DNA of 64,000 nucleotides from a virus: IMG/VR virus record IMGVR_UViG_3300008266_000037, positions 1 to 64,000 of that record, one strand, 5' to 3'. Below are positions 26,725-44,071 of this stretch, in pieces. The notes under the pieces are model-generated. The model searched no databases. It had not been told where the DNA came from and worked only from the letters and a program-made list of their open reading frames with translations. Each line of letters opens with the position of its first letter. Positions within the stretch are counted from its first letter, which is position 1. The position numbers were made by a program, and so were the translations under genes.

Positions 26725-27150
26725 ATGGCGGATTTGCCTAGCAAACACGCCGTTCACTTCGAGGCGGTGAAGATCGCCATGAACCAGACCAAGGATGGGT
26801 GGAAGCTCATCCTTGCGGTTCACCCTAACGATGCACCCGAGGAAGTTCTTCGGGCGCTCGTTGGGGCGAGGTACATGATCGCCGCCGTTGAGTTGGATGA
26901 GCATGAGCAGCCGAAGCCCCTGTTGAGCGATGCCGAGAAGGATGTTCGGTATGCTGGTCAGCTGTGCCGCACACCCGCCTTTGCCACTTGGATGTGGAGC
27001 AGGGGCTGGGCTCAGGAGATGACAGAGGCGTCTGCTGCCGATGGCCTTAGGCTAGTGCTGGGGATCGCTTCTCGATCAGAGATCGCCACCAATGAAGATG
27101 TAAGAAGGAGATTCCGTGAGCTTGCCCAATCCTACTTGGACGATAGCTGA
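26725..27150 (+). CDS. hypothetical protein overlapping integrase start
   Basis: 141 aa. 35-nt overlap with int, in the position an xis-like gene would occupy. No clear HTH. Confidence 0.45.
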   Translation: MADLPSKHAVHFEAVKIAMNQTKDGWKLILAVHPNDAPEEVLRALVGARYMIAAVELDEHEQPKPLLSDAEKDVRYAGQLCRTPAFATWMWSRGWAQEMTEASAADGLRLVLGIASRSEIATNEDVRRRFRELAQSYLDDS

Positions 27151-27952
27151 CCTGATCAGCTCATACCGGGGCAGTCGGCACAACCGGCTTCTTGCTCCGG
27201 CCACCCGAAGAAATACCGAGAAGACCTACCGATGGCTGGAACCGTTCAAGGACCGGCTTCTGGACACCATCACCAAGGCTGAGATAAGCACGGTTATCGA
27301 CGGCCTGCCTGCTGGCAACGCTCACATCTTTCTGTCCCGCGTTCGCGCTTTGTTCAGCTACGCTCGCTCGCTGGAAGAGATGACCAAGGACCCCTGTGTA
27401 GGCCTCACCACGCCTGCTACTGGTGAGTACCGACCTTGGACCCAGAAGGAAGTAGACGCCTTCCTGAAGGGCTCCAGCGACACTGTGGGCATGGCTGTGA
27501 AGCTGGCCTATTACACCGGCCAGCGGATGAGTGATGTCCTGACCATGAAGTGGAACGACATCCGGGACGGCGGTCTGGATGTTGTGCAGATGAAGACGAA
27601 GCAGCCGCTTCACATTCCCCTGCACCCTAAGCTGAAGGCCGCCCTGAAGAAGCACTCTCAGGGCAGCAAGTCCGATTACATCATTGCCATGAAAGACGGC
27701 AGGCCCTACACCCCGCATGAGTTTCGTGGTCGTTTTCGGGACACCCGCATCGCTCTTGGTTTGCCCGACGATATGGTGTTCCATGGGCTTCGCAAACTGA
27801 CGGCGGTCAACCTCGCCGAGAAGGGCGCCTCTACGCAGGAGATCATGGCTGTTGGTGGGTGGAAGTCCTCTCGCCAAGTGGACCACTACTGCAAGGGGTC
27901 TAATCAACGTAAGCTGGCCAAGCAGGCCATTGGAAGACTGGGAGCCCTGTGA
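27116..27952 (+). CDS. int: tyrosine integrase/recombinase
   Basis: R in YYTGQRMSDV. HxxR in FHGLRK. Catalytic Y in VDHYCK. GTG start after AAGGAG. Confidence 0.8.
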   Translation: MSLPNPTWTIADLISSYRGSRHNRLLAPATRRNTEKTYRWLEPFKDRLLDTITKAEISTVIDGLPAGNAHIFLSRVRALFSYARSLEEMTKDPCVGLTTPATGEYRPWTQKEVDAFLKGSSDTVGMAVKLAYYTGQRMSDVLTMKWNDIRDGGLDVVQMKTKQPLHIPLHPKLKAALKKHSQGSKSDYIIAMKDGRPYTPHEFRGRFRDTRIALGLPDDMVFHGLRKLTAVNLAEKGASTQEIMAVGGWKSSRQVDHYCKGSNQRKLAKQAIGRLGAL

Positions 27953-29200: not shown

Positions 29201-29277
29201 GCGCCCTTAGCTCAACTGGATAGAGCACCAGCCTTCTAAGCTGGGGGTTTCAGGTTCAAACCCTGAAGGGCGCGCCA
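29201..29277 (+). tRNA. tRNA-Arg (anticodon TCT), CCA encoded
   Basis: Manual cloverleaf. Acceptor GCGCCCT/AGGGCGC. D-arm GCTC-AACTGGATA-GAGC. Anticodon arm CCAGC-CTTCTAA-GCTGG. T-arm TCAGG-TTCAAAC-CCTGA. Discriminator G + CCA. Confidence 0.85.
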
Positions 29278-29279
29278 AT

Positions 29280-29355
29280 GTGCCGGGTGGTCCAACTGGT
29301 AGGGGCGCCCCGTACGCGGAGGAGGTGGGGGTTCAAGTCCCTCTCCGGCACACCA
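29280..29355 (+). other. tRNA-like element (canonical acceptor, D-loop, T-arm and CCA; anticodon arm does not fold canonically)
   Basis: Acceptor GTGCCGG pairs with CCGGCAC, then A + CCA. D-loop AACTGGTA. T-loop GGTTCAAGTCC. Possible pseudo-tRNA or attP core, 2 nt after the tRNA-Arg. Confidence 0.45.
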
Positions 29356-29368: not shown

Positions 29369-29584
29369 ATGCGAAAGAACTCTGCCCTCCCTAGGCTGAT
29401 TGCCCGCCTCCAAGAAGGCCCTCTAAAGGGAACCGACTGGAGACAATGCTCTCACAGTCAGCACACCCTGTATGAGAACATCCGCAGGCTTCGGTCTATG
29501 GGGTGGGACATACGGACGATAGGGGATTCCGGTAGGCCCGGAGAGTATATCCTTATAGCCCCGCCTGACGTTCCAGTTCCCTGA
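29369..29584 (+). CDS. hypothetical small protein (possible DNA-binding)
   Basis: 71-aa ORF ending convergently against the giant gene. Confidence 0.35.
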   Translation: MRKNSALPRLIARLQEGPLKGTDWRQCSHSQHTLYENIRRLRSMGWDIRTIGDSGRPGEYILIAPPDVPVP

Positions 29585-32500
29585 TTTGCTGGATGGTGAG
29601 GTTCATGAGAACCTGCTCTTCGTCACGCAGCTGCTTAACGATGGCCACCTTAGAGGCGTCGTCCATCTGAGGGTCCGTTTGGACCTCTCTAATCTCTCGC
29701 CTCGTCTTGATGCGTTCGCGCTCCATGTCAGCCGCGAAGTCGTAGATCATCATCCGCTCGGGACTGCGGGCCAGCAGACTGTTCACCGCCTCGTAGTTGC
29801 CTTCACTCTCGAACTGATCGACAGACCTACCGAACTGAAGGTAGGGCGTGATCAGCTTGTCGTAAGAGGTGCGGATAGATGCGCCACTGACATTGCCGCC
29901 AAACGACCTGTAGAGCGGCCAGTCTCTTGCGGCCAGCTCTCTTCCCTCAACGGCCTTGCTTTGCGGATCAATGGCAAAACCCATCAGGTTCCCGACCCTT
30001 CCAACAAACCGGCCCATGCCGCCAAGGTATGCCCCGGCCATGTGGTCAATGTCGTCGGGGTGAACCTCAATAGCGCCGGGGGTGTAGGCACTATCCCCGC
30101 CAGTGAGGCGAGAAGCCACGTCAGCAATGCCTTGGCTGGTCTGAGATGTTGACGGGAAGAACGACTGAGAGGCTGGCTGCTCAAGGCCCGGCATACCGGT
30201 CGGGTGAATGGGCTTGCCAGTGAAGTCAGTATTTACAGCTGTTTCGACCATAGGTCTGAACACAGACGGGAAGATGGCAGACACCCAACTTCCGTTGGTG
30301 CCGAAGGGGTTGAACGCCGACAGGACGGAGGAGCCCGTTTTCATAGCAGCATCCAACGGACCGCTCTTGCCCATCGCTACGCGCGCCATGTTCCGGCCAG
30401 CGGTATGGAAGACATTGTACCCAAGCGGCATGGGGATCTTCAGATAGTTCCCGCCTCCCAGCATGATGACCATGTTCTTCTCAAGGATGTAATCCTCGAT
30501 CTTATCGTACTCGCTGGTGCCGTATTCATCCTCTGGCGAGAGAGCCGACATAAGCACCTCTTGCAGAACGCCAGCGACCATGATTCCCATGATCACCTTT
30601 TGTACGCGAGGACTGGTCGCCGCCTGCATGAGAGTGGCGGTGCCTTGGGTGGCAGCGTTGAAGAACATATAGGCCGCGTTCATGTACGGCCCCCACTCCC
30701 CCTTGCGGTTGAAGTTGACAGTCATGTCCTTAGCCGCCTGAGCCGCGCGCTCCTCGCTCCAGCCCTGCTCCCTGAAAGCCTCAAACACGGCTAGACGGGT
30801 AGCCCCCTCAACGGAATCGTTGAGGTCTTCCAGATACTTAAAGCCCTTGCCTATTGCCTTCATGGATAGCCGGAGAGCCTTGGCCCCGGCGTTCTTGTCC
30901 TGCGGGTCAATGTCGTTCAGCTCTCTGGTGATCTGCTGCATCTGGTCCTCAATGGAGGTGAGACCATACACACCAGTCAGGCCACCAAGCTCAGACAGCC
31001 TGTCCATTTTTGCCTCAAGGACCGGGTCTTTCTTGCCCAGCCTCTCGCCTACCGCTTGACCGGCATAGACCATAGCCTTCTTGCTGATCTTCTGCCACGC
31101 ATCCGGGCTGTACTGACCAGACTGGATCATGGCCGCCTGCACGTCACGCAGGAAGTTGGCGACAAGGAACTCAGGGTTATATGATGTCTGCAACTGAGAC
31201 ATCAGGCGGGTCAGCCTCGCCATGCGGGACAAGATCAGGTCAGGGAGTGAACCCCCAAAGGACTGAATCTTCGACAGGCTGTCGCCCAGCCTCTTGTTCT
31301 TGACCTCAAAGATAACGTCCTTGCCGTTTTCTTTTGTGACGAAGTAGTTGGGGTCTCCCTTTACGTCCTTCGGACTCATCCGGGTCTTACCGTTCACGAC
31401 CACGCGCTGCATGGGGTGAGCGGGAAGTTCAACCAGATAGTCTTTGGTGAGTTCAGGGTTGTCACGGACGAACCGCGCGAGAGACTGACCGACCCTGACC
31501 TTCTCGCTTCTAACGATAGCCTCTTGGTTCTGCATGATCACGTTGGCCAGCATGTCGCCAGCGTAGGTTTGGCGACCCTTCATCGCCCGGTCTTCTTTTC
31601 CTCCGACCTTGTATGCCTTGCCGGTTCTGGCGTGCTCATCTCCAGTGAACCAGTCCTCTGCCGTGTTGCCGACAGCAAACCCTCTCAGTGGCACATAGTG
31701 TTTGAAGCGGGGCACAAGGGGAGACACGATGTCATCCCACTTAGGCGACAGGCCGGAGGTCTCTCTGGTCTTCCTTGTGTAATCCAGAATAGCATCGACC
31801 TTACTGGCAGCTGCCTCGACCTTGCTTTGCTTAGAGTAGCCGTCGAACCAGTCCATGATGGCTGCGGCTTCCTCGTTGGTCATGCCAGAGCCTGCGTCCA
31901 GCATCTCGTCGGTGATCTCTCCTGTGTCAGGGTCAATCTCCTTGGCCTTCCGCACTTCCTCAATGAACTTATTTCTCTCGGGCGCATGGCGGGCGTAGAG
32001 GTACAGGTTTAGAACGGCCTCCGACGGGTGGACGTGGGAGCTTTCCAGCTCTAGTCTGGCGGCGTTTGAAACACTGGACAGCTTTGCAAGGTCAGCCTCG
32101 GTCGCGCCAATCTGGTGGATAGCAAGGTAAGCCGGGCGCCACAGGTTCTCGTGTGCCTTGTCCATCTTATGCTGAGAGCGGCGGGTATAGAGGGTGTCGG
32201 CCAGAACGGGGTCGTTGGTGTCAGTCACCCGACCGCCAAACTTCGCCACCTCGGAAACCATCCTACGAACCGGGAACATCCGGTCTTGCGCCAGCGTCGT
32301 GGCCCTGTCGATAGCATCCCTAGCGTCAGCCTCAGCAACCTTGATCGGGCTGACCCTTGTTCCTTTGGCAAGATAGTCCTGCACAATGGTGTAGCGCGCT
32401 GCCATTTCCGCAGCACCAGACCCACCCATAGCCGCTACCTCAGGGCTTGGGCCTCCGATGGTCTTGCCTGTGGTGGACATTGCCGCATCGAGGGCGTCAA

Positions 32501-35500
32501 GGTCAGCCTCAGTCATCCCGCGAGGAAGGGTCGCTCCCTTGGAGTACAGGCGGAAGCCCTCTCCGTTAACGACCTCCCGCATCTTGGGAGTGATGTGGAA
32601 GGTAGGGGCGTCAAGGGTTCTGGCAGGCATTACCCCGCCTGTAATCGGGTGGTCGCCTTCTGGAATGTCAAACTGTCGATTGTTAATCTGCGCCCCGTAA
32701 GGCTTGATCTCCTTGCCGATTATGGATGTAATCACATCGTCGTAGAACTTGCCGACACCCTTTACAGACTGGTCATTACTGTACCGTTCCACTTGAATGT
32801 GTCCCGGCGTCCAGCTGATCTGGGTAATGCCGTTGTCAATAGCATCCAGAATGATGCGTCTGGTGGCCAGCTTAACCCATGCGTTATTCTTGAAGGGAGC
32901 TTCCGGAGGGGTGTCATACACTTCAAGAAGCTGAATCTTGTCGTATTCCTCTTGGGCTTTACGAAGAGAGAAGCGAATCGCCTCAGCAGCCTCGTGCGTC
33001 TGTCTATCTGGCCAGTACTTATAGTTTGAGGCGCGCGTGAATCTGGACAAGACATTGTGTTCGCCGGTCCGACTAAAGTCTGGGGGCTCGGCCATGTTAT
33101 TTTCGTAGAACTCAATGGCCTTTTCCTTTTCAGCCTGCAAGATCCTTTTAGCCTCAGCGACTTTTACCTCAACAATGTGCGAGCGGCGCAGGCGCTGGTG
33201 CCAGTCAGACTGGATTTCTTCAATGAACAGGGTTGGAACGCCGTTAACGTCATCCCTGATCTTGTAGCGAACGTGAGCCAGCACGTTGTACTCTCTGAAG
33301 TGCTCAGTGGCCCTGAAAGCCACTGGACTCAGCTTCGGGTTTATTGAACCCGGAATAGTGATCAGTAGTTCTGTCTCGGTGTGTCCTCCACGAAGTGTGT
33401 AGTTGCTGTGGTTGGCAACCAACCCGTCGTCTACCGTGTAATCGTTATACGTGTCCCACTCAGCAGCCGATGTCATCTTTTTGGCGACGTAACCTTCAGC
33501 CTGCTCTCGGTCCATTTGGCGACCGTCCATGTCCAGCTCATCCATAAGCTCTTGAACCATGGCGTCGAACATCTCCTTGTCGACAGGGTCTTCGATAGAC
33601 CCCGGACCCCTCTTGATGTCCTCCAAAACAATGTTGTTTTCCTCAAAGAACTCCTTCAACTCCTCAAGGGTCATGACCTTGTCAGGGTTTTCCTTAAGCA
33701 GGTCAGTAAACCCAACCCAATCCATCTCGTCCTTGGTCACGCCCGGCTGTGACTCAAGGGTCTTCAGCCATTGCTGAGCGGTGGCCTTCTTGGTGGTCTG
33801 GGCGTTGATGACCTGACCAAGGCGGGAATGAATACGGGCTCCAGCGTAAGAGAAGCGTCGGTCAGAAATGCGGGGGATGTTGTCCGGACGAATGCCAAAC
33901 GGGTCCACAAAAGACGCCATCTCCAGCATCTCATCGGCCATGTCATTGAGACCAGCCGCCCTGTTCTTCTCGGCCAGAGCCTGAAGGTTTTCGATGGTCT
34001 CCAACGGGGTAAAGCCGTTGCGGGAGTTGTAGTGAGACACGCCAGAAGCGGCAGCCTTCTTGGCAGCGATCTGAGCAAGAAGAGCGTTCTTCTCGTCCAA
34101 AGTCATCGAGATACCAAGGTTCTCGTTCACATCTACCGTGCGCCAAGGGGCATTACGTAGGCGCTCGGCTGGCGTCATGTTAATGCGCGACTCTGTGTTA
34201 CGCGCCTCCATCTCTCCATAGAGAGATTTGTAGACCGCAAAGTTTGTCGCCCGCTTGTATATGTCCGACATGTTGGAGGGGGGAACACCCATGACACTCA
34301 AGGCGCCCATAAGGTGCTCAACACTCTTGATCTGCGATGGGGTGTAGGTGGACCGTTCAGAGCCTACAGCCTTAAAGAAGCCGTCAATGTCCTGATTTTT
34401 TGATAGGGTTACCAGCTCCTTATTGACGGACTCAAACCGACGCCTGACCGCCTCACTCACCGTGGCAAGAGAAGGCATCCTGTTGGGGTTTCCGCCCCCG
34501 GCCATTCCCTCAAATGTCTGGATAGCGTGCTGGATTTCATGCAGCAGGACGGCTCTTATGGTTTCAGCCTCTTGAATGAGAGGCACGCCCCCCTTCCCGA
34601 CGGCAATCAAAATCCTATCAGGCGGCTCTCCGGTGCGAACTGGCGTCATGGCCGCGTTGCCCACAGTGAAGGAGCTGCCATCGTTTGTCTCGTCGGCAAA
34701 CTCAACCGTAACGTTTCTTAGGAAGGGGTAGGCCTCAAACAGCTCAGGATGATCCAGCACCTCTTCAATGGTGGAGTATATGGACGGACTCAGAACGCCT
34801 TGTTTCTGGCGGATGACAGCAAGGTCGCCGCGCAGATCAGAAGCGTTTGCAACAGGCTTAAGTCTGGAGTCATTGTCGCTGATCTCATAGCGAGGTTTCC
34901 CGTCAGGACCACGGAACCAACCGGTGTGCAGATAGATGGTGCCGCGAGAGTCGCCAGCCTTCTCCATCTTGAGGAACTTGGCGTAGTTGTCCCGTGGTGG
35001 GCGCTGGGATTTGGTGCTGGCAAAACTGAAGCGGCGGTCGGAAGGAACGGGAGGTTCCGCAAAGGGAAGCATGACCTCTTCACGGGCGGCAATCTTAAGG
35101 TTAGAGCCGGGAACGTTGTAAGGCTCCCTTCTTCTCACATTCCTGCTATCGAGAGTTCTTCTCCCTTCAGTGCTAAGCGCCTCCGCTTCGGCTTGCTGAG
35201 CATCAGCGGGCCAACCCTCCATCTGTCTGACGGCAAGCTGCGTCTGCCTGAGAATGGCCGAAACAACCATCTCTTCTTCCGGTCGGCTGTCGGCTCTTTT
35301 GGAAACGCCAATAACAATCCTGTCTGGGAGGGTTTGTCCGTCCCCGGAAACCATAAGAGAGCCGTCAGGCTTTTTAAGCGTGAACTCTACGGGAAGTGGA
35401 GCTAGTCCCGGATAGGCCTCAAACAACTCCTTGTGCTTGAGGACATCTTCAAGAACTTCATAAGTAGAGGTGGCGTTGGGACCGGCCTTGGCAATCCTTT

Positions 35501-38500
35501 CCCGGATTTCTTTTGGCCAGTAAGCATGGCGAAGCCGGGACTTAGCATCGCTGATCGAATGGCGAGGCTGACCGTCACCACCTCTATACCACGCCGTCTC
35601 CTGATAAATCTTGCTTGGCCGCTCTCCAGCCTTCTCCATCTTAAGGAACTTGTCGTAGTCCTCTTTCTGGGAGGACATAGATCTTGCCCCAGTAAGCATG
35701 AAGCGACGGTCAGATTTTCGACCGGCCATGTCTTCTTCGCCACTAAGGTAATCCAGGTACGCGCGAGTGGTGCTGTGATCAGCTGCGTCGTAACCGCCCT
35801 CAGAGAACATCTTGTCCGTTTGAGTAAGAACCTCCTTTAGCAGCGTGTTAGCGCTAGGCTTAAGCCCCATCAGTTTCCGGACCCAGTCCACAAACTTATC
35901 CCACATAGACACAGGAGGGGCTCCCCTCTCTGCTCGGCCAAGAGGCTTGCCCTTAGCGTCTATGGTCTTCATGAATGCCTGAGCGTCAGGGTCCGTAAGG
36001 GCCCAAGACACAAACTCATCGGGGTGCCCAAACATTTCAGACGCCCAGATCTGGCCTCTTGGGTCAGCCGCAGGGTGGCTGAGAAGGTGCTTGTGGTCCT
36101 TGTTAATAGCCCCCCCAAAGACATCCCAGAGCCTTTTGATCTCGTCTATGGATTCTTGCGCATTGGACGGAGAAAGGCCAGCCAGCTCTCTGTTTCTCTC
36201 GGTCGCCATCGAGAGCGTGTGATATCTTGACCCGACAAACGCGTGGATCAGCTCATGGAGAATAATATCCTGAGAGTCCTTAGCGGCGGGGTCTAGAGCG
36301 ATCTCAGCGGAAGCCATGCGGTACGAACCAAGAAGCCCGCGCAAAGGTCTGACGCCTATTGTCGTTCGGCTGCCGACACCGCCGTTGTCCAGCATCTTCC
36401 CTGCAAGGGCCTTGAACTCGGGGCTCTCCCCATTAACGGCAATCCAGTTCAGGACTTTGTTGGCTTCTCCGGTTTGGACCGCATCAGAAAGAGACCCCCA
36501 CACCGAGGCCCTCGATTTGGTCGGCAGACCCGCCGCAACGATTGAGGCCCCAAGGCCAACAAGGAACTGCCTGCGAGAGGGGTCGGCGTACATCCTCTGG
36601 TCAGCGCCGCTCTGGTCTTGACGAGTGCGGGCTCCAACTTCTCCGCTCATAACCTTGGTGAGCACGCTGTCAGCTCGCTGCATCTTCAGCAGCTTCTTGA
36701 AGAACTGGACAATCCGGTTCATCAGGCCGGTGTAGCGGGCGCCAATCTTACCGCCGGACTTATACCAGTCCTTGGTCATCTCAGCGACAGCCTCCTCAAC
36801 GATAGCATCCATGTCTGGATTGCCGTCATCGTTAAGGTAGGTGTCTCTATACTTCTCGTTGGCCCACTGGAGGTAGGTGTATTCCTTGCCGTCCATCTTG
36901 CGTGAACGGACTTCCTTGCCAAGGACGTTCCACTCCTGAGAGGTGAACTTACCCAGTCTGCGCAAGGCATGGATAGCCTCGTGATGGAGGGTCTCCATCA
37001 TCTTGGCGAGGTTCTCAGCGTCAGAAAGGTTGGGGTCGTAAGCGTCCCTAGAAAGGGCAATCAGTACCTGTATGGACCGACCTTCGCTGTCCCGATCAGA
37101 GGTCTCAGCGTAGCCAGCCGCGCCTTCGTCAAGCTGCCCTTCCACCTTGAGGATGGTTTCATCACTCAGGCCCAGCTCTTTCAGGGCAGACTTCAGCGCC
37201 TTCTCTTGGCGGGCATCGCGGCCAGCAGTCTTGTTCTCTGGCGTGGTCTGAATATCAGGAGCGGGGGCGGCGGCTGTGCCTTGCTTTGCATCCAGCCATT
37301 CCTGAGCCTTCTGCCGGGTCGGGAACGTGTGAACAACATTCTCTCTCGGGGCACCATCAGTGTCCGCTGTCGTGTCCATGACGGTGCCGTCAACAGGAGA
37401 CAGGCCGGTCCTTACCGGAGCAGCCACCTTTTCCACCACGGCAAACGCAGCGCGGCCAGTCTGGGCCCTAGCGACTTCAAAATCTGCTTGCTGAAGCTGT
37501 GACTCAAGAGCGGCCCTAGCGCTGTCCATCGCCTCCACACGAGAGGCGGGCCAGTCTTCTCCTACTTGAGGGAGGGCAGCCAGCTTTCTCCTGATATCGT
37601 CAGCCCGTACTCTGGCGGCGTCGAATCTGGCTTTGATGGCTTGAGGTGAAGGGCCTTTCGATGCTCCTTCTGCGGTCGGTTCTTGAACCGGGATGGGCTT
37701 GATGTACAGCTCTGTGCCTTCGCCGGGGCCTGCGACCTCTGGCGGTTTGGCGGCTGTACTTTCATAGACCGGTTCCTTGTTTGTTCTGGTCTTGCCGTTC
37801 TTGAGTTTGGTGGTGGTCTCGTTAACGCCAACCTTCTTGATGAAGCCACGGCGCTCAAGGATTTTCAGCGTGTCTGCCGGACGGGGGATGCCCTTGTCCT
37901 TCAGCATCGAAGGAGTCACAGGACCAGCCTCAGCGGACCGAATAAGCTCAGCGCCCATCTCGGGGGTGAACGGATCAGCGGTCAGCTGGCTTTCGGGACG
38001 GGGGCGAACAGGATCGGGAAGCGGCTTCGGCATACGCTTCTTGCCAGCCCTTGCTTTCTCTATCGCTTGAACGCGATCCTGCTGTTCGGCAAGCAATGCC
38101 TCATAGTTGCCCTGAGCCATCTGGTCCAGAACTGGGGCAACCTGTTCCCGCCAAGAAACCTGATCCACCGCAGAACGGGTGGACGCTGGCATGGGGGGAA
38201 TGTTTTGTGGGGGAACTCTGTCGTAACCAATGTACCCGGCTGGCCCGCTATCAACGGGAGAGGGCTGAGGTTGCGCTGCTTGACGCTGACGGCCCCATCT
38301 TCTTTCGTTGATGGCGTCCCGAATCATGTCGTCCCGGAGCTGGGCCTCACCAGCACGAGGAGCATTCAGGCCACCGGCAACACCGCCGATGCCACCGCCC
38401 ATGATGCCGCCAAGGACACCGCCCTGAAGGGCTGCCGTTCCCACACCCTCCATAAGGTTCTGGTTGGAGTCTAGGGTTCTCTCTGCCACGTTAGAGAAGA

Positions 38501-39359
38501 ACTGCTCTCCACCGGATTGGATAGCTTCTTCAACACCCTCAGAGAACACGCCCTTCGCCGCGCCGCCAAGAGCCCCTCGGCTAAAGATGTCTCCAGCAGC
38601 ACCAGACAGAAGGGATCTTTCAAACCCACCCATCAATCCGCCAGTAACCCCAGTAAGGGCGCCAGATGCCATTGATGGCAGAACGGCAGCTCGCTCCGCC
38701 TCTGCTCTGGTATAGCCTTCAGCCATCAGCCTTTCGACTGTGGACTGCTGAGACATAAGGGAGCCTTGAATGCCTTCTGCCGCAGCCATGCTCAAAGCGG
38801 CAGCCTTAGGGGTCAGTCCCATTCCTCTGGCAGCAAGGCCTGCGCCACCGGGGACAATCATGGACGGAAGGGACTCAAGCCCCATACCGATCAGGTTATC
38901 AGCGTCATACCAAGGGGCGTTCTCCCGGTTGTATTGACGGGCTTCTGATTGCTCATTACGGGCCGCGTCTCCAGCGACATCGCCGAGCAGGCCGAGCGCG
39001 TTGAGCTGACCGCTAAGGGTGAGAGGATTGTAGTCGGTTCTGACACCCGACGTGTCCACCCCAAACAGGCCAACAATACCCCTTGCCATAGAAGCTGGGT
39101 CGTTCAGCAGGCCGGGCAAGGCAGCGAGGCCGGACCCAAAGTCCAGCGCTCTGTCGCCAATCAGGTCTCCGATACCACGGTCTGGTCTAGAGCCCGGTCC
39201 TTGAGGGGTGGAGGTTAGATACCCAAGAATCTCGGTATCTGAATAGCCCTGTTCTCGGGCTTGGACAACTTGCGGCCTACCGTTGGCGGCAAGGTACTCT
39301 ACGATCTCTGCGTCGGAATACCCTGCGGCTCTTGCCTGGGCAATCTTAGGATCGGCCAT
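29553..39359 (-). CDS. giant virion-associated polyvalent-type protein (3268 aa) with three zincin-like HExxH motifs
   Basis: Uninterrupted 9.8-kb ORF closing the late operon. N-terminal GYSD(A/T)EI(V/L)(E/G)YL repeat x2, then a Gly/Ala-rich glycine-zipper region. HExxH motifs HHEAIH, HELIH and HEIQH. Internal ~224-aa duplicated module starting SDRRF. Confidence 0.85.
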   Translation of the reverse strand: MADPKIAQARAAGYSDAEIVEYLAANGRPQVVQAREQGYSDTEILGYLTSTPQGPGSRPDRGIGDLIGDRALDFGSGLAALPGLLNDPASMARGIVGLFGVDTSGVRTDYNPLTLSGQLNALGLLGDVAGDAARNEQSEARQYNRENAPWYDADNLIGMGLESLPSMIVPGGAGLAARGMGLTPKAAALSMAAAEGIQGSLMSQQSTVERLMAEGYTRAEAERAAVLPSMASGALTGVTGGLMGGFERSLLSGAAGDIFSRGALGGAAKGVFSEGVEEAIQSGGEQFFSNVAERTLDSNQNLMEGVGTAALQGGVLGGIMGGGIGGVAGGLNAPRAGEAQLRDDMIRDAINERRWGRQRQAAQPQPSPVDSGPAGYIGYDRVPPQNIPPMPASTRSAVDQVSWREQVAPVLDQMAQGNYEALLAEQQDRVQAIEKARAGKKRMPKPLPDPVRPRPESQLTADPFTPEMGAELIRSAEAGPVTPSMLKDKGIPRPADTLKILERRGFIKKVGVNETTTKLKNGKTRTNKEPVYESTAAKPPEVAGPGEGTELYIKPIPVQEPTAEGASKGPSPQAIKARFDAARVRADDIRRKLAALPQVGEDWPASRVEAMDSARAALESQLQQADFEVARAQTGRAAFAVVEKVAAPVRTGLSPVDGTVMDTTADTDGAPRENVVHTFPTRQKAQEWLDAKQGTAAAPAPDIQTTPENKTAGRDARQEKALKSALKELGLSDETILKVEGQLDEGAAGYAETSDRDSEGRSIQVLIALSRDAYDPNLSDAENLAKMMETLHHEAIHALRRLGKFTSQEWNVLGKEVRSRKMDGKEYTYLQWANEKYRDTYLNDDGNPDMDAIVEEAVAEMTKDWYKSGGKIGARYTGLMNRIVQFFKKLLKMQRADSVLTKVMSGEVGARTRQDQSGADQRMYADPSRRQFLVGLGASIVAAGLPTKSRASVWGSLSDAVQTGEANKVLNWIAVNGESPEFKALAGKMLDNGGVGSRTTIGVRPLRGLLGSYRMASAEIALDPAAKDSQDIILHELIHAFVGSRYHTLSMATERNRELAGLSPSNAQESIDEIKRLWDVFGGAINKDHKHLLSHPAADPRGQIWASEMFGHPDEFVSWALTDPDAQAFMKTIDAKGKPLGRAERGAPPVSMWDKFVDWVRKLMGLKPSANTLLKEVLTQTDKMFSEGGYDAADHSTTRAYLDYLSGEEDMAGRKSDRRFMLTGARSMSSQKEDYDKFLKMEKAGERPSKIYQETAWYRGGDGQPRHSISDAKSRLRHAYWPKEIRERIAKAGPNATSTYEVLEDVLKHKELFEAYPGLAPLPVEFTLKKPDGSLMVSGDGQTLPDRIVIGVSKRADSRPEEEMVVSAILRQTQLAVRQMEGWPADAQQAEAEALSTEGRRTLDSRNVRRREPYNVPGSNLKIAAREEVMLPFAEPPVPSDRRFSFASTKSQRPPRDNYAKFLKMEKAGDSRGTIYLHTGWFRGPDGKPRYEISDNDSRLKPVANASDLRGDLAVIRQKQGVLSPSIYSTIEEVLDHPELFEAYPFLRNVTVEFADETNDGSSFTVGNAAMTPVRTGEPPDRILIAVGKGGVPLIQEAETIRAVLLHEIQHAIQTFEGMAGGGNPNRMPSLATVSEAVRRRFESVNKELVTLSKNQDIDGFFKAVGSERSTYTPSQIKSVEHLMGALSVMGVPPSNMSDIYKRATNFAVYKSLYGEMEARNTESRINMTPAERLRNAPWRTVDVNENLGISMTLDEKNALLAQIAAKKAAASGVSHYNSRNGFTPLETIENLQALAEKNRAAGLNDMADEMLEMASFVDPFGIRPDNIPRISDRRFSYAGARIHSRLGQVINAQTTKKATAQQWLKTLESQPGVTKDEMDWVGFTDLLKENPDKVMTLEELKEFFEENNIVLEDIKRGPGSIEDPVDKEMFDAMVQELMDELDMDGRQMDREQAEGYVAKKMTSAAEWDTYNDYTVDDGLVANHSNYTLRGGHTETELLITIPGSINPKLSPVAFRATEHFREYNVLAHVRYKIRDDVNGVPTLFIEEIQSDWHQRLRRSHIVEVKVAEAKRILQAEKEKAIEFYENNMAEPPDFSRTGEHNVLSRFTRASNYKYWPDRQTHEAAEAIRFSLRKAQEEYDKIQLLEVYDTPPEAPFKNNAWVKLATRRIILDAIDNGITQISWTPGHIQVERYSNDQSVKGVGKFYDDVITSIIGKEIKPYGAQINNRQFDIPEGDHPITGGVMPARTLDAPTFHITPKMREVVNGEGFRLYSKGATLPRGMTEADLDALDAAMSTTGKTIGGPSPEVAAMGGSGAAEMAARYTIVQDYLAKGTRVSPIKVAEADARDAIDRATTLAQDRMFPVRRMVSEVAKFGGRVTDTNDPVLADTLYTRRSQHKMDKAHENLWRPAYLAIHQIGATEADLAKLSSVSNAARLELESSHVHPSEAVLNLYLYARHAPERNKFIEEVRKAKEIDPDTGEITDEMLDAGSGMTNEEAAAIMDWFDGYSKQSKVEAAASKVDAILDYTRKTRETSGLSPKWDDIVSPLVPRFKHYVPLRGFAVGNTAEDWFTGDEHARTGKAYKVGGKEDRAMKGRQTYAGDMLANVIMQNQEAIVRSEKVRVGQSLARFVRDNPELTKDYLVELPAHPMQRVVVNGKTRMSPKDVKGDPNYFVTKENGKDVIFEVKNKRLGDSLSKIQSFGGSLPDLILSRMARLTRLMSQLQTSYNPEFLVANFLRDVQAAMIQSGQYSPDAWQKISKKAMVYAGQAVGERLGKKDPVLEAKMDRLSELGGLTGVYGLTSIEDQMQQITRELNDIDPQDKNAGAKALRLSMKAIGKGFKYLEDLNDSVEGATRLAVFEAFREQGWSEERAAQAAKDMTVNFNRKGEWGPYMNAAYMFFNAATQGTATLMQAATSPRVQKVIMGIMVAGVLQEVLMSALSPEDEYGTSEYDKIEDYILEKNMVIMLGGGNYLKIPMPLGYNVFHTAGRNMARVAMGKSGPLDAAMKTGSSVLSAFNPFGTNGSWVSAIFPSVFRPMVETAVNTDFTGKPIHPTGMPGLEQPASQSFFPSTSQTSQGIADVASRLTGGDSAYTPGAIEVHPDDIDHMAGAYLGGMGRFVGRVGNLMGFAIDPQSKAVEGRELAARDWPLYRSFGGNVSGASIRTSYDKLITPYLQFGRSVDQFESEGNYEAVNSLLARSPERMMIYDFAADMERERIKTRREIREVQTDPQMDDASKVAIVKQLRDEEQVLMNLTIQQIRELERQAGL

Positions 39360-39377: not shown

Positions 39378-40820
39378 TTAGTCGCCGAGTATCGAAGAAA
39401 GCGGCGGACGGTTCTCCGTAGATCCTACACGAGCTGGCGCTTGACCTGAAGTCGTGGTGGGCCGAACAGGACCGGCGAGACCAGCCGTTGCAGCTCTTTG
39501 AGCTTGAGCAATGATCTCTTCTTCTGTGGCTGGCCGGTATTCCGTGCCGGGAGACCCGTCCAGCTTAGGACGCTGAGCCCGTTCTTGACCAGCTCTTGAA
39601 GCTGCCGCGTAAGCGCCCTGATACAGGGTTGCGTATCGCTCTTCTTCTGATTTGCTTTCCCAGCGACCAGCGGCGATTTCCTTGTCTCTAAGAGCAGCAG
39701 CTGCTGCCCTTGCCAAAGCAGCTTCGCTTGAGGTGTGTTCTCTGTTGAGCCTGTTCTGCTCAATGTTAACGTTAGCCGCTGCGGCAGCATCCCGAGATCT
39801 GGCACCGCCGAGGGTAAGTTCAGAGGCGTTGCTGAAGGCTCCCGCTCTAGCCGCAAGATCACCCCTGTAGATACCAGAGGCTGCCTCAAGAGAGGCTCGG
39901 GCCTGCTGCTGCTCAGCCTGACTGCGGGCCAGCTGAGCCTGAATGACGCTCTGCATCAAGCCGCGCTCTTCCTCTTGAATGCGGTCACGAGAGCTAAGAC
40001 CCGCAGCCCCACCAGCCGCAAGGGCAGACATGAAGTTCGGGGTTCGGGCAGACATCATTGCAAGGCCAGCATCCATTAGGGCCCGGCCCCTGTTAGAGCC
40101 CCGCTCTCTATCTTCTTCGACCTGAAGGCGAGACAGAATCTTAGCGTAAGGCTCTGTCGCGTCAGGCATCATGTTGGCGATGTTCGCGTAATGGTCCTGA
40201 ATGTTTCCGGCCTCAGCAGGAAGCCCGAGCGCCCCAATGATTCTGTCGCCCAGACCCATAGCGTCGTTAGCAATGTTTTCCGGGTTGGAGAATCCGTTGG
40301 GAAGATCTGGAGCGGGCGGCGGTGCGGGAGTTTCAGGGGGGGCAACCCCGTCAATAGACGCCCCTTCCGGGGAGTAGTGAAAATGCATTCCAGACCCAAC
40401 ATTGTGTCTGAGCAACTCACCGGCAGGGAGCCCTGCTCTGGCAATGCTCGCAGCTGCACTGGCTAGAGTAAGGCCGGGGTCGACAAAGTCCCATGCGTCA
40501 CCGCCATTGCGGGTGTGCCATGAGTTAGGAACCCCGCCGACCTGAGCGTTTCTTTCAGGCGTTCTGTAACCAGAGGTGAACCGGGCTTGCGGAAAGATGC
40601 CGCCAAGTGTTTCCCTAAGCTGCCTTGAGCGCTCGCTTTCCCCCCGAACAGGACCGCCATCAGCAAAGCCTCTAGGCTTACCGCCCCTCAGGGCCGCTCT
40701 CCGCTGAAGTTCATTCATGACAACCTGCAAGGGCGCCATACCGGAGGGACGCTGAAGTTCTTGCACAAGCTGGTCGTCGGTAAGCCTCTCAACCAGAGAG
40801 GAAATCTGCATCATTTCCAT
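39378..40820 (-). CDS. virion protein with peptidase M15 (murein endopeptidase/VanY-like) domain
   Basis: Motif SGYRTPERNAQVGG...SWHTRNGGDAWDF. C-terminal Ala/Arg-rich coiled coil. Confidence 0.7.
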   Translation of the reverse strand: MEMMQISSLVERLTDDQLVQELQRPSGMAPLQVVMNELQRRAALRGGKPRGFADGGPVRGESERSRQLRETLGGIFPQARFTSGYRTPERNAQVGGVPNSWHTRNGGDAWDFVDPGLTLASAAASIARAGLPAGELLRHNVGSGMHFHYSPEGASIDGVAPPETPAPPPAPDLPNGFSNPENIANDAMGLGDRIIGALGLPAEAGNIQDHYANIANMMPDATEPYAKILSRLQVEEDRERGSNRGRALMDAGLAMMSARTPNFMSALAAGGAAGLSSRDRIQEEERGLMQSVIQAQLARSQAEQQQARASLEAASGIYRGDLAARAGAFSNASELTLGGARSRDAAAAANVNIEQNRLNREHTSSEAALARAAAAALRDKEIAAGRWESKSEEERYATLYQGAYAAASRAGQERAQRPKLDGSPGTEYRPATEEEIIAQAQRAATAGLAGPVRPTTTSGQAPARVGSTENRPPLSSILGD

Positions 40821-41806
40821 TAGGTCGTTCTCCCGCCAAGATTTTGAGAACCGCCAAACAGGCCAAGACCAAGGCCGACAGCCTGAGCATAAGGATTCTG
40901 GAACTGAGTGCTGGTAACTTCAGAAGACACCGGCATCGGGGTGCCTCTCAGGACACCCGACAGCATGGCCAGATTTTGGCGTTCGTAGTCACGCTGGTTA
41001 GTGAAGTCGGTGTAGCCAAGGTCCAGCCCGGCTTGCGTCAGTTGTTCTTGGCTCAGCCCCATATTCCGCATAGCCTCAGCATCTGAGTAGCCCATCTGAG
41101 AGCGAAGCTGACCCATGCGAGCGGCTTGCTCAGAGAGCTGCCCCATCTGGTTGGAGCCCGACAACATACGGTCCAGACCAGAGATGTCAGCGGCCTGATT
41201 AGAGCGGTCAGCGTCCAGCATTCTGCCCTGATCGCTAGCCCAGATACCTTGACCTTGCCGGTAGGCATCAGACATAGCGCTGCCTTCGGCCTCCATCATG
41301 CGGCGCTGGAAGTCGTTGCCAGCCAGCTGAGCCATGACGCCGTGGCGAGAGCCGCCAAACGCGCCAGACATTGCAGCTCTCTGGTCCAAGGAGTTCATCT
41401 CCTGACCAAAGGCGTCCATCTGACGAGAGCGCTGTTGGTCAAGGACGGTGTTCAGGTATGGATCCATGTACCGCTGAGCAGCAGCAGTATCCCACTGACC
41501 AGTGCCCACATCTCTGGCAGCGCCGTTAACAGCACCAGCCGTGCCAGCCATGGCGCTGTCCAGACCGCTAGCAGCGGTGTCCATGTAGGGAGACCAAGAC
41601 CCTTGGTTCGCCGTGACCTGACCAAAGGCGGATTGAGTTGGAGCAGAGAAGTCTGCCAGCCTTGCCCCGGTGTAGGCCTCATAAGGTCGGTTAGAAATAC
41701 CTTCAGCCCGTTGAAGGGTGCGTTCAAGGTATGGGTAAAACTCCTCAGGGAGGGAGCTTTGAGTGACCGTCTGGTCCGTTGGTTGGCTGCCGCCGCCCTT
41801 GCTCAT
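40820..41806 (-). CDS. internal virion/ejection protein (Q/G/M-rich)
   Basis: 328-aa low-complexity ORF inside the ejection-protein cluster. Confidence 0.55.
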   Translation of the reverse strand: MSKGGGSQPTDQTVTQSSLPEEFYPYLERTLQRAEGISNRPYEAYTGARLADFSAPTQSAFGQVTANQGSWSPYMDTAASGLDSAMAGTAGAVNGAARDVGTGQWDTAAAQRYMDPYLNTVLDQQRSRQMDAFGQEMNSLDQRAAMSGAFGGSRHGVMAQLAGNDFQRRMMEAEGSAMSDAYRQGQGIWASDQGRMLDADRSNQAADISGLDRMLSGSNQMGQLSEQAARMGQLRSQMGYSDAEAMRNMGLSQEQLTQAGLDLGYTDFTNQRDYERQNLAMLSGVLRGTPMPVSSEVTSTQFQNPYAQAVGLGLGLFGGSQNLGGRTT

Positions 41807-42219
41807 GTGAACCTCTTCTCAACCGTTATGAACGCTTCTCGCCATCCGAACCGTTCCAGCTTTCTGACCCAGCCCCTTCTGCCGATAAGCTCAAGCCCAT
41901 CGCAGTTGTTTTCATGGGCAAACTTCTCAAGGAGAGAATGCATATCCTCAATCCATTCAGAGAAGAAATCCCCAGCCAGCATTCTGACCTGTAGCAACTT
42001 CACTTCGTCGTACTCAACAAAGGCGCTTGAGCAGAAGCCAATAACCTTGCCGTCATCTCCAGCAACAACCCAAAGCATTTCTTGGTTGTTCATCAGATCA
42101 AAGAGAAACCTTGTCGCGCATCTGCGCTTACGGGTAAGGGGCAGAACCCTTTCCGCATACTCTTTGAACATCGGCCAGCAAGCCCCGATGTTGCTAGGGC
42201 TGACGTACATTATCTTCAT
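41803..42219 (-). CDS. GNAT-family N-acetyltransferase
   Basis: 138 aa. VVAGDDGKVIGFCSS...LLQVRMLAGDFFSEW resembles the acetyl-CoA binding core. Confidence 0.55.
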   Translation of the reverse strand: MKIMYVSPSNIGACWPMFKEYAERVLPLTRKRRCATRFLFDLMNNQEMLWVVAGDDGKVIGFCSSAFVEYDEVKLLQVRMLAGDFFSEWIEDMHSLLEKFAHENNCDGLELIGRRGWVRKLERFGWREAFITVEKRFT

Positions 42220-43613: not shown

Positions 43614-44071
43614 CGCGTTGATTCCAAGTACGAGATTGCTTTCCGAAGCATCTCTGGATCGTCCTTCAGTTTTCCGATGGCGGTATTGCAGGGGCTACAC
43701 AGTATACCGCGTATCTTGCCGGTGGAATGACAGTGGTCAACCGCAAGTCGTCTTCCAGACGCACACTTCATAGTTCCGCAGATATTGCAACCGTTCTTCG
43801 CCATTTCTTCGTATTGCTCTACTGTCAGCCCATAGTCTCTGCGAAGGTTTCTAGCCCTGATTGCTTCGGGATTCCTTTTCTTGGGGGCTGTCTTTGCCTT
43901 ATACCGAACCGGCCTTCCGTCTTCAGTCCTTTTCTTTCGCCATCGCCGGGCGTACTCAGCCCTGCCCTCAAGCCACTCCTTCAGCTGGTCTGGAGAGAGG
44001 CTGGCCTTTCTGGCCGCCTTCCAGTTTCGCTGATATTCTGCTTCGTGTTCTTTGTTCGCCAAACCCATCAA
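43610..44071 (-). CDS. recombination endonuclease VII-family (HNH-like) homing nuclease
   Basis: Motif CNICG...LAVDHCHSTGKIRGILCSPCNTAIG. Confidence 0.7.
   Translation of the reverse strand: MMGLANKEHEAEYQRNWKAARKASLSPDQLKEWLEGRAEYARRWRKKRTEDGRPVRYKAKTAPKKRNPEAIRARNLRRDYGLTVEQYEEMAKNGCNICGTMKCASGRRLAVDHCHSTGKIRGILCSPCNTAIGKLKDDPEMLRKAISYLESTR

Follow-up and report, generated by a model that had tools for sequence, protein, structure and literature searches.

An internal twin-arginine signal before a zincin module of a giant phage protein that probably belongs to the polyvalent class

We found that a 3268-aa protein encoded in the window, which is the whole 64,000-nucleotide stretch of viral DNA analyzed here, contains an internal twin-arginine (Tat) signal peptide immediately before the second of its three zincin modules. 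An internal Tat signal before a zincin module in giant polyvalent proteins is previously undescribed. The protein itself is, with a probability of roughly 0.8, a genuine member of the known phage-type polyvalent class, that is, an effector which is packed in the virion and ejected with the DNA. We tentatively propose, as a possibility with the odds against it, that self-processing exposes the cryptic Tat signal and that the host Tat system re-exports a lethal-factor-like protease to the periplasm. The features considered below are listed in Table 1.

Table 1. Features of the giant gene and of its upstream neighbors
Feature	Residues	Position	Strand	Basis
Whole gene, 3268-aa probable phage-type polyvalent (giant ejected virion) protein		29553..39359	-	ORF list and translation; Pfam LPD38, LPD23 twice; PHROG giant-protein families
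Two GYSDxEIxxYL repeats	1-60	39180..39359	-	motifs at residues 13 and 38
Gly/Ala-rich glycine-zipper module	60-400	38160..39182	-	composition, GxxxG count, homology
Charged, Pro-rich region, confined to close relatives	400-740	37140..38162	-	matches P0001-P0005 only
Zincin module 1, HEAIH 793-797 and EEAVAE 855-860	740-925	36585..37142	-	homologue conservation
Internal Tat signal peptide PSRRQFLVGLGASIVAAGLPTKSRA, then S952	927-951	36507..36581	-	TIGR01409, Pfam TAT_signal
Zincin module 2, HELIH 1035-1039, conserved PDE with Glu1115	952-1215	35715..36506	-	lethal-factor/MtfA-like fold (model)
LPD23 and degenerate truncated zincin copy	1216-1436	35052..35714	-	Pfam LPD23 E=6.9e-8
LPD23 and zincin module 3, HEIQH 1607-1611, GEMEARN 1715	1437-1829	33873..35051	-	Pfam LPD23 E=2.3e-12
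GNAT-fold domain, invariant EExQSD (EEIQSD at 2047-2052)	1830-2275	32535..33872	-	GNAT alpha/beta fold (model); without Pfam model
Conserved C-terminal module of phage giant virion proteins, including LPD38	2346-3268	29556..32324	-	PHROGs, tblastn
Sole strongly hydrophobic helix VIMGIMVAGVLQEVLMSAL, then acidic patch	2922-2940	30540..30596	-	Kyte-Doolittle scan
Pfam LPD38 domain	2950-3143	29931..30512	-	PF18857, 142.8 bits, cut-off 27
Upstream neighbor, 480 aa, M15-type peptidase/endolysin-like, putative ejection protein, 0 Cys		39378..40820	-	Pfam Peptidase_M15_3, phrog_894
Upstream neighbor, 328 aa, 'DNA ejection protein' family, 0 Cys		40820..41806	-	phrog_4287 E=2.8e-19

Genomic setting and class of the giant protein

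The preliminary description reported one giant ORF of 3268 aa that closes the late operon after the genes for an M15 peptidase and ejection proteins. Our translation, which begins at an ATG start codon, agrees with this ORF, and the gene is indeed the final one of the minus-strand late block. The M15-like gene upstream is separated from it by 18 nt, and the 480-aa product scored 24.1 bits against Peptidase_M15_3 (cut-off, 23.2) and also matched an endolysin PHROG. The same strand block holds virion structural genes and a portal gene; that is, the giant gene is encoded among virion and late genes, which is a feature of the polyvalent class. Two genes for tRNA-Arg, together with an integrase-like ORF, follow on its 3' side on the opposite strand. 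The gene order from the M15-like and ejection genes to the giant gene is syntenic with Bcep22-like genomes and with the P0002 contig, in which the synteny of the 328-aa ejection-protein gene is kept.

The polyvalent reading had been put forward in the preliminary description, and it is supported by the matches to Pfam LPD38 (E=1.8e-41) and, twice, to LPD23 (PF18838; 71.7 bits across the two copies), together with the three conserved zincin modules. Polyvalent proteins are the set on which both domains were defined, and LPD38 is confined to the phage type (PMC5512222). Iyer, Burroughs, Anand, de Souza and Aravind showed in 2017 that zincin MPTases are the commonest domain of the class, with several copies in some proteins; their class includes GNAT domains, and they proposed MPTase-driven processing (PMC5512222). 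In the giant protein at least 8 distinct modules were mapped by homology, namely the GYSD repeats, the glycine zipper, three zincin families, LPD23, the GNAT-fold domain and the LPD38 module. As in the class of Iyer et al., many unrelated domains are fused in one very large polypeptide, with several zincins, LPD38 and a GNAT-fold domain among them. In contrast, the GNAT-fold domain of the giant matches no Pfam model, the PolyVal set included, and the twin-arginine signal, signal peptides and the periplasm are all unmentioned in that paper. The earlier statement that the domain set looks uncharacterised holds only in part; the 2017 catalogue already included MPTase, LPD23, LPD38 and GNAT domains. 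Four features were absent from the preliminary description, namely the internal Tat signal, the degenerate fourth zincin copy, the GNAT-fold domain and the shared C-terminal module of about 900 aa. Among 90 database relatives, LPD38 occurs in nearly all, and the other PolyVal domains are variable.

The C-terminal module is common to 54-76 of these 90 relatives. It matched phrog_14770 (E=3e-131), phrog_616, phrog_10691 and phrog_10089 ('DarB-like'), and tblastn with the module gave 382 phage records, including 933W, VT2-Sakai and Burkholderia, Ralstonia and Vibrio phages. The hydrophobic helix within it was the only 19-mer exceeding 1.3 on the Kyte-Doolittle scale, and its position is conserved in alignment A4. 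This module, shared by phage giants of the class, is likely the part concerned with packaging, ejection and the membrane.

The C-terminal 830 aa or so are homologous to the giant protein of phi24B (gp47), 933W (L0134) and VT2-Sakai (LPD5-LPD1-MuF-C-LPD38), with about 30% identity and E=4e-81. The gene of phi24B gp47/933W L0134 is also the last large one of a podovirus structural block, and this protein too has a metallopeptidase. However, its N-terminal and middle parts are unrelated to those of our giant, in which LPD5, LPD1 and MuF-C gave no Pfam match and three zincins, two LPD23 copies, the GNAT-fold domain and the Tat signal are found instead. By mass spectrometry phi24B gp47 was found in virions and was abundant, yet it is invisible in the cryo-EM map, and it is therefore thought to be inside the capsid and to be ejected. 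JC1 gp69 is virion-associated by mass spectrometry. JC1 gp69 and Bcep22 gp75 (Lessievirus) occupy the same genome position as the giant, at the end of the morphogenesis module and before small reverse-strand genes. When the giant was compared with these proteins, as had been suggested, the LPD38-type C-terminus was common to them but the helicase region was not; that is, they have 4500-4600 aa with a helicase-type region (HepA superfamily match in JC1 gp69), whereas the giant has no detectable helicase or methylase. From these relatives, which have only the C-terminal module in common with it at about 30% identity, we infer that the giant is probably packaged in the virion.

The giant protein contains 0 Cys in 3268 aa, compared to 0.76% for the other ORFs of the window, and the three proteins encoded upstream of it likewise have none. 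Among related giants, 144 of 201 are cysteine-free. The near-absence of Cys in the giant and its class may be regarded as indirect support for packaging and delivery with the DNA.

The N-terminal modules were largely as first described. The duplicated motif reads GYSDAEIVEYL and GYSDTEILGYL; an N-terminus with these repeats recurs in P0004, P0005, P0044 and P0091, and residues 1-60 weakly match DUF7626. In the glycine-zipper region, G and A together make up 29-30% of every 100-aa block from residue 1 to residue 400, and these 400 residues hold 16 GxxxG motifs, compared to 2.2 per 400 aa in the rest of the protein. The module has homologues in 16 other LPD38 proteins, where they make up the N-terminal 100-450 residues, and it is always N-terminal among related giants. 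Residues 400-740 gave no family profile match above threshold.

In the structure model, residues 1830-2275 adopt a GNAT alpha/beta fold which resembles tRNA- and protein-acetylating enzymes, although GNAT Pfam models gave 0 matches among 14 family members. The conserved residues of the family are EExQSD, two His and a Tyr. GNATs carry the acetyl-CoA pyrophosphate-binding motif (P-loop, Q/RxxGxG/A) after strand 4. Past the strand, the family has the consensus QSDWHQxGRKxGY and the giant instead reads QSDWHQRLRRSH; an obvious P-loop is missing. Compared to the TacT/AtaT tRNA-acetylating toxins and other GNATs, sequence similarity is undetectable, an obvious P-loop of the usual kind is lacking and other residues are conserved.

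Zincin modules and the 511-aa cassette

The three HExxH sites noticed earlier could be placed exactly (Table 1), and the reported 'HHEAIH' is explained by H792 preceding the first of them. Only 0.047 such motifs are expected by chance from the composition of the protein. Judging from the alignments, all three sites sit in conserved zincin modules in which HExxH and a downstream Glu are invariant within each family. The zincin fold was confirmed by the structure model for module 2, and modules 1 and 3 were assigned from sequence. In module 1, HExxH is retained in 19/19 homologous segments, H, E, H and EEAxA are invariant in alignment A1 (14 sequences), and the sub-threshold matches were to zincin families throughout (Tox-MPTase2, M13, SprT, M1 and BSP). 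In module 3, a weak SprT-like match was found at 1594-1614, and HExQHxIQxxE..A.G and GE..R are invariant across 12 homologues.

The model of module 2 shows a predicted gluzincin, that is, a zincin fold with the HExxH helix and a downstream Glu ligand. It resembles MtfA, the Pro-Pro endopeptidases (PPEP) and anthrax lethal factor, although the sequence identity to these is only 6-16% and, unlike the lethal-factor type, module 2 has an additional N-terminal helical subdomain. The model also matches the zincins of N4-like virion RNA polymerases and T7-like core proteins. The core of module 2 is contained in phiKMV-like internal virion (gp16-type) proteins, namely phiNV3 gp38, the phikF77 protein and the PJNP013 'DNA ejectosome component'. 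The phiNV3 core has HELTH and 26% identity to module 2 (E=8e-6), and the protein that carries it is known to be ejected. In contrast to the giant, these proteins have about 1300 aa, no Tat-like segment before the zincin and no LPD domains.

Module 2 is followed by a dead zincin copy with RQTQL where HEIQH would be expected. When it was aligned with the intact LPD23-zincin copy and homologues, 3/3 catalytic residues were found to be replaced and about 100 aa to be missing. Residues 926-1436 form a clean insertion relative to P0002, which is 62-72% identical. The comparison indicates that the Tat signal, zincin 2 and the dead LPD23-zincin copy are one 511-aa cassette missing from the closest relative. 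Between close relatives, the middle array is freely swapped and both ends are fixed.

The internal Tat signal

The segment scored 17.2 bits against NCBIfam TIGR01409 (cut-off, 16.7), and 18.4 bits with E=0.002 against Pfam TAT_signal (PF10518), under the cut-off of 22.7. No Tat-model match was found in the other 9 tiles of the protein. The motif SRRQFL agrees with the S/T-R-R-x-F-L-K type; the h-region, FLVGLGASIVAAGLPT, is uncharged, moderately hydrophobic and at least 12-13 residues long, and it is followed by SRA, a small-x-small sequence, and then by S. These features, namely S-R-R-x-F-L, an h-region rich in Ala and Gly that runs for about 16 residues without charge, and SRA, are like those of bacterial Tat signal peptides (TIGR01409/PF10518). 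Unlike them, the signal of the giant begins far inside the polypeptide, at residue 927 of 3268. Tat signals normally work from the N-terminus, and proteolytic exposure would therefore be needed. To our knowledge, internal Tat motifs occur only in multi-spanning actinobacterial Rieske proteins and in two-part thylakoid transit peptides.

The segment is conserved among relatives. TIGR01409 matched 18/23 homologous segments, and a strict AxA follows the signal in 16/23. In alignment A2, whose mean column identity is 38%, RR is invariant, as is HExxH. Furthermore, RR and an uncharged run precede zincin 2 in 60/104 related giants, with the consensus [TSG]-R-R-x-F-L-x-G. When a strict filter was applied, 30 sites were found at the expected place, whereas the other giants, with 309,557 residues, gave 3 and shuffles gave 3.0. 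In the structure model, the segment is a predicted helix of low pLDDT which is not packed against the domain.

Possible function and alternative explanations

A temperate 933W/Bcep22-like podovirus probably packs the giant in its capsid and ejects it into the cell alongside the DNA. The protein consists of three layers, namely the N-terminal GYSD/glycine-zipper part, a swappable middle enzyme array and the C-terminal LPD38 module; the array runs from zincin 1 through the Tat signal with zincin 2, the dead LPD23-zincin and LPD23 with zincin 3 to the GNAT-fold domain. We speculate as follows on the action of the protein. The active zincins may cut the polypeptide at the linkers between modules, in line with the proposal of Iyer et al. 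for such proteins, and the cleavage would free a fragment of about 32 kDa starting at the Tat signal. Host TatABC would then carry the folded, zinc-loaded fragment to the periplasm, where signal peptidase would cut after SRA(951), and the remaining modules would work in the cytoplasm.

There is a nearly even chance that the Tat-like segment is unused for export, being an ejectosome helix that anchors in the membrane or serves as a linker, or a relic left by the capture of zincin 2 from a bacterial protein that was exported by Tat. The segment is 926 residues away from the N-terminus, and it is lacking in 44/104 zincin 2 relatives and in the cultured-phage homologues phiNV3 and phikF77. We found no credible internal start codon upstream of it; GAGG abuts ATG923, which has no usable ribosome-binding site, and the Val at -2 is encoded by GTC, GTT or GTA at three other loci. 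The homologue searches gave no free-standing bacterial or short Tat-led homologue of zincin 2 that would show export directly. On the other hand, RR varies as little as the catalytic HExxH among sequences only 23-30% identical, and the conserved features are those that TatC reads, [ST]-R-R-x-F-L, together with a weakly hydrophobic Ala/Gly h-region and AxA. A membrane anchor would require hydrophobicity alone, and a relic would be expected to have decayed; moreover, a bacterial donor family was not found, nearly all of the 111 homologues of zincin 2 being giant phage proteins. It is also conceivable, if rather unlikely, that the giant is a conduit only, that is, an ejectosome structure extending the short tail across the periplasm, with zincins that act on the wall or envelope during penetration and serve neither processing nor as cytoplasmic effectors. 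A preprint on phi24B proposes gp47 as a transperiplasmic conduit whose metallopeptidase helps peptidoglycan degradation; the fold of zincin 2 occurs also in T7-like internal core proteins and in a PhiM1 ejection protein, the C-terminal module carries the conserved hydrophobic helix, and the avoidance of Cys suits passage through the periplasm. However, a swapped middle array with fixed ends is the pattern of an effector, not of a fixed structure, the GNAT-fold domain has no obvious role in a conduit, and a domain already in the periplasm needs no Tat signal. We also know of no lethal-factor/MtfA-type zincin that is a peptidoglycan hydrolase.

JC1 gp69 and Bcep22 gp75 are annotated as DarB-like antirestriction proteins, the database name for related giants, and phrog_10089 matches residues 2832-3120 of our protein. 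A helicase-methylase that guards the DNA against type I restriction as it enters the cell, like that of phage P1, is nevertheless very improbable, because the match is confined to the common LPD38 region, and in 3268 aa neither SNF2-type or other helicase families nor DNA methyltransferase families, the N6-adenine type included, gave any match in Pfam, NCBIfam or PHROGs. Other relatives do carry domains of this kind (PF04851, PF13871/13872 and PF00271), and thus such domains would be detectable in the giant. The large size might suggest a structural fibre, a tape-measure protein or an N4-type virion RNA polymerase, which we consider the most improbable of all. Podoviruses require no tape measure, and the setting of portal, adaptor and ejection genes is podoviral; no tape-measure or fibre family matched the giant ORF, and the weak tape-measure PHROG matches belong to a 465-aa neighbor. 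N4-like virion RNA polymerases are among the BFVD matches to the model of zincin 2, but these matches concern only the zincin domain, which virion RNA polymerases also carry (PMC5512222). The earlier observation that T7-like RNA-polymerase motifs are lacking was borne out, with zero matches to RNA-polymerase families, the T7-like single-subunit family included, in Pfam, NCBIfam and PHROGs.

The Tat cassette appears to be mobile between giants, and uncultured phages carry it in 60 or more sequence clusters. If the proposed re-export is true, an effector delivered by the virion would take an 'inside-out' route to the envelope of the cell and arrive there early in infection, and the re-exported protease might serve to block superinfection, to disarm periplasmic defences or to remodel the wall.

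Class membership and genomic setting

The giant ORF was confirmed as a single frame encoding 3268 aa, and its gene is, as the preliminary description had stated, the last of the minus-strand late block, after the M15-like and ejection-protein genes (Table). Pfam matched LPD38 at residues 2950-3143 with 142.8 bits, and LPD23 was matched twice. In PHROGs, residues 2346-3253 aligned with the C-terminal parts of several families of giant proteins, among them a family named 'DarB-like'. By tblastn, the C-terminal region of about 830 aa was found in 382 phage records, including those of 933W, VT2-Sakai, and Burkholderia, Ralstonia, Vibrio and Pseudomonas phages. Ninety relatives of 1800-5500 aa were obtained from the protein database; LPD38 was present in nearly all of them, and their other PolyVal domains differed. 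In the survey of 'polyvalent proteins' by Iyer et al. (2017), LPD38 is confined to the phage type and zincin MPTases are the commonest domain (PMC5512222).

Two homologues have been examined in virions. Gp47 of phi24B was detected by mass spectrometry, is abundant, is missing from the cryo-EM map and was proposed to be an ejection protein. Gp69 of JC1, a homologue of Bcep22 gp75, is virion-associated by mass spectrometry and is likewise encoded by the final gene of its morphogenesis module. By analogy with these homologues, the giant protein is probably packaged in the virion. The polyvalent-protein reading is thus supported by LPD38 and LPD23, the giant relatives, the virion homologues and the gene context, and the giant protein is a member of the class of Iyer et al.

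The DarB label of some relatives was rejected for the giant protein, since no helicase or methylase was matched in Pfam, NCBIfam or PHROGs. Readings as a virion RNA polymerase, a tape-measure protein or a fibre were also rejected, because the domains that would support them are absent. By sequence alone, solved structures gave nothing meaningful, either with the whole protein in phmmer or in profile searches with the alignments of zincin 1, the GNAT-fold domain and the C-terminal module.

Where the giant gene ends (3' side), a consensus scan gave neither a promoter nor a terminator. The window had no nucleotide similarity to known phages. Its gene order is that of the contig of P0002, the closest full-length relative. 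Inside the ejection-protein block lies an endonuclease VII gene (43610-44071, minus strand; Pfam E=4.5e-25), which may be a mobile nuclease insertion, because an unrelated 97-aa ORF occupies its place in the syntenic P0002 contig. The motifs of the integrase-like ORF suggest a temperate phage or prophage, and the two tRNA-Arg genes beside it may be phage-encoded or mark an attachment site. The best relatives of the portal-like protein (61530-63953, minus strand) are the portals of Planktothrix, Synechococcus, Pelagibacter, Roseobacter and Caulobacter podophages (35-44% identity). The C-terminus of the giant protein is nearest to its counterparts in enterobacterial and Burkholderia phages. The genome looks mosaic.

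Table. Modules and junction motifs of the giant protein and neighbouring genes
Feature	Residues	Window position	Strand	Remark
Giant gene		39359 to 29553	-	ATG start
GYSD repeats	1-60			
Gly-zipper module	60-400			always N-terminal in 16 other giants
Region private to close relatives	400-740			
Zincin 1	740-925			
Junction motif QRMYA	922	~36594		
Predicted Tat signal	927-951			
Zincin 2	952-1215			
LPD23 + apparently dead zincin	1216-1436			
Junction motif DRRFML	1218	~35706		
LPD23 + zincin 3	1437-1829			
Junction motif DRRFSF	1442	~35034		
GNAT-fold domain	1830-2275			invariant EExQSD motif
Junction motif DRRFSY	1834	~33858		
Junction motif FRLYS	2270	~32550		
Shared C-terminal module	2346-3268			
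480-aa protein		ends 18 nt upstream of giant gene	-	Peptidase_M15_3, marginal yet above threshold
328-aa protein		upstream of 480-aa gene	-	member of 'DNA ejection protein' PHROG
465-aa protein, 703-aa virion structural protein, portal		still farther upstream, same block		
tRNA-Arg	 	29201-29277	+	anticodon TCT; between giant 3' end and integrase-like ORF
tRNA-Arg	 	29280-29355	+	anticodon ACG; adjacent to the preceding
278-aa integrase-like ORF		27116-27952	+	tyrosine-recombinase-like motifs HGLRK...GGW...HY

Modules of the giant protein

The module map was obtained by tiling the giant protein against its relatives (Table). The described duplication of GYSDxEIxxYL is present at residues 13 and 38. 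The Gly/Ala-rich glycine-zipper N-terminus was also recovered; that is, residues 1-400 are about 30% Gly+Ala and hold 16 GxxxG motifs, against 2.2 per 400 aa elsewhere in the protein. Within residues 400-740 (window 37140-38162), the segment PFTPEMGAELIRSAEAGPVTPSMLKDKGIPRPADTLKILERRGFIKKVG looks winged-helix-like by eye and is conserved in the relatives P0002-P0005. The sole strongly hydrophobic helix (residues 2922-2940) is in the C-terminal module. Compared with P0002, which is 62-72% identical, residues 926-1436 are a clean insertion of 511 aa; two further relatives, P0003 and P0004, lack the 1830-2275 domain as well. These results indicate that the ends of the protein are fixed and the middle is shuffled.

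Exactly three HExxH sites were found, as described (HEAIH 793-797, HELIH 1035-1039 and HEIQH 1607-1611), where 0.047 sites are expected from the composition. In zincin 1, HExxH was present in all 19 homologous segments, and H, E, H and an EEAxA about 60 residues downstream were invariant in the alignment of 14 sequences; its family matches were all sub-threshold and all to zincin families. In zincin 3, HExQHxIQxxE and GE..R were invariant in 12 homologues, and there was a weak SprT-like match. The preliminary description had proposed AlphaFold models of all three HExxH regions; the zincin 2 model, made from a 23-sequence alignment (pLDDT 85.5), has a zincin fold with three strands followed by the HExxH helix, and zincins 1 and 3 are assigned from sequence. 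In BFVD, the zincin 2 model matched polyvalent-protein fragments, N4-like virion RNA polymerases and T7-like internal core proteins, and by tblastn zincin 2 is related to the phiKMV-like ejectosome proteins of phiNV3 and phikF77. The extra LPD23 copy is followed by a remnant that is shorter by about 100 aa and has R, Q and L in place of H, E and H. The giant protein thus appears to possess three active zincins and one dead copy.

Of about eight modules, two were modelled, zincin 2 and the GNAT-fold domain. The GNAT-fold domain (model pLDDT 80) occurs in more than 25 giant proteins, at times twice per protein, and its family has an invariant Glu, two His, Gln-Ser-Asp and Tyr. No Pfam-A model matched it, and it is uncatalogued in that sense; it could be one of the two GNAT families that Iyer et al. 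listed in polyvalent proteins (PMC5512222). The usual CoA P-loop was not evident in residues 1830-2275, and catalysis by this domain is therefore uncertain.

A candidate internal Tat signal before zincin 2

In the features described so far, the giant protein is one more representative of a class already known. What goes beyond the class is a candidate internal Tat signal and, less strikingly, the GNAT-fold domain and an avoidance of cysteine. Residues 927-951, PSRRQFLVGLGASIVAAGLPTKSRA followed by S, show the complete three-part build of a twin-arginine signal peptide. This segment matched NCBIfam TIGR01409 at the curated cut-off. Its match to Pfam TAT_signal (E=0.002) is below the cut-off of that model, and the remaining nine tiles of the giant protein matched no Tat model.

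An exhaustive HMMER search with residues 925-1215 gave 111 cluster representatives, nearly all of them giants of 1500-6800 aa in which the match lies deep inside. A word-index search with these residues or with the zincin 2 alignment returned nothing, not even the 100% identical database copy P0001, and a null in that search does not mean absence. The zincin 2 alignment has 23 sequences and a mean column identity of 38%. Among its invariant columns are RR, HExxH, a single Arg and, within a PDE motif, the Glu; the L and G of RRxFLxG are nearly invariant. TIGR01409 was matched by 18 of the 23 segments (best E=8e-5). A strict AxA lies 15-35 residues past RR in 16 of them, with small-x-small variants in most others.

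By a loose rule, which asks for RR and a run of 12 or more uncharged residues where the signal is expected, it was found in 60 of 104 proteins, with the consensus [TSG]-R-R-x-F-L-x-G. A strict rule gave 30 sites at the expected place, against 3 in 309,557 residues of other LPD38 giants (one being P0001, the same protein) and 3.0 in shuffled sequences. An independently fetched IMG/VR locus carries the same motif. The 2017 survey (PMC5512222) mentions neither twin-arginine, signal peptides nor the periplasm, and in full-text literature searches no virion or ejection protein of a phage was described as having a Tat signal. Judged from sequence, a conserved internal Tat signal before one zincin family would go beyond the known class.

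Among proteins P0093-P0201, Val was enriched at -2 before RR (21/60) and Lys was frequent at -3 (K-V-S-R-R). The -2 Val codons checked in three loci were GTC, GTT or GTA, so that there are no hidden GTG starts in these loci. ATG at -2 was found in P0094 only, with a weak GGTGG upstream, and in the window GAGG directly abuts ATG923. We rejected an internal translation start before the signal as a general explanation.

The examined zincin 2 relatives are encoded in the structural modules of phages, where capsid and SU10-type adaptor genes precede them, and their C-termini match giant-protein PHROGs. Pattern scans of GTDB representative genomes gave no prophage or cultured host for the Tat-zincin cassette. 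Three loci were found in IMG/VR, ten cassette proteins are all metagenomic, and the cassette family is known from metagenomic contigs only. There were no convincing free-standing short homologues with an N-terminal Tat signal; the short matches look like fragments. In loci L002, L004 and L005, giants of about 2200 aa with the Tat-zincin cassette (P0113, P0117 and P0116) directly follow three genes, for a capsid protein, an SU10-type adaptor and a protein of 277-300 aa, and are themselves followed by a 'Gp80' family gene. These three giants have no LPD38 Pfam match, but their C-termini match giant-protein PHROGs, and they seem to form a second lineage of such proteins.

Possible processing and export

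We infer the following course. The giant protein would be ejected into the cell together with the DNA, and its zincins would cleave it at the polar linkers that join the modules, a kind of processing put forward by Iyer et al. for polyvalent proteins (PMC5512222). The fragment that begins shortly ahead of RR929/930, about 290 aa long, would then be a normal Tat substrate. Its folding and zinc loading would take place in the cytoplasm; TatABC would export it, and trimming would follow after Ala951. The cryptic internal signal would keep the 350-kDa precursor off Tat in the virion-producing cell.

Two observations, one on the module junctions and one on cysteine, are in keeping with this course. 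A motif [RKM][RMLF][FY][SMA] lies at five successive module junctions (Table); in all there are six matches against 1.3 expected, for a pattern picked after the data were seen. The junctions of relatives have it too, such as PLFSK and FYSAL on either side of their GNAT-fold domain, and the insertion point of the 511-aa cassette is exactly between two such motifs. They could be cleavage sites or recombination joints. The main rival to export is that the Tat-like segment may be an anchor or a relic. This explanation stays serious, because the signal lies inside the giant protein and 44 of the 104 zincin 2 relatives are without it. In the zincin 2 model, the segment is a low-confidence helix that is not packed against the domain.

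The giant protein has no Cys in 3268 aa, against an average of 0.76% in 20 other ORFs of the window, and the three putative ejection proteins upstream (480, 328 and 465 aa; 39378-43613) also have none. Among the relatives, 144 of 201 are Cys-free (60/90 LPD38 giants and 84/111 zincin 2 giants), with 0.02-0.04% Cys overall. This avoidance is consistent with unfolded passage through the oxidising periplasm and may be a mark of such proteins; a near-total absence of Cys offers an inexpensive way to spot ejected proteins when phage genomes are searched.

Polyvalent giants make up 15-20% of some podovirus genomes, and we know of none for which a mechanism has been demonstrated. The giant protein supplies a clean modular map, with fixed N- and C-terminal delivery parts and an exchangeable enzyme array between them. 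Its Tat cassette makes two questions experimentally simple: whether giants of this class are processed into several effectors, and to which compartment each part is sent. If the signal is inert, the gene is an ordinary, though well dissected, new member of its class. To our knowledge no protein delivered by a virion is so far known to use the Tat pathway of the host; if the signal works, this would be the first, and the cassette would represent a new family of periplasm-directed phage proteases.
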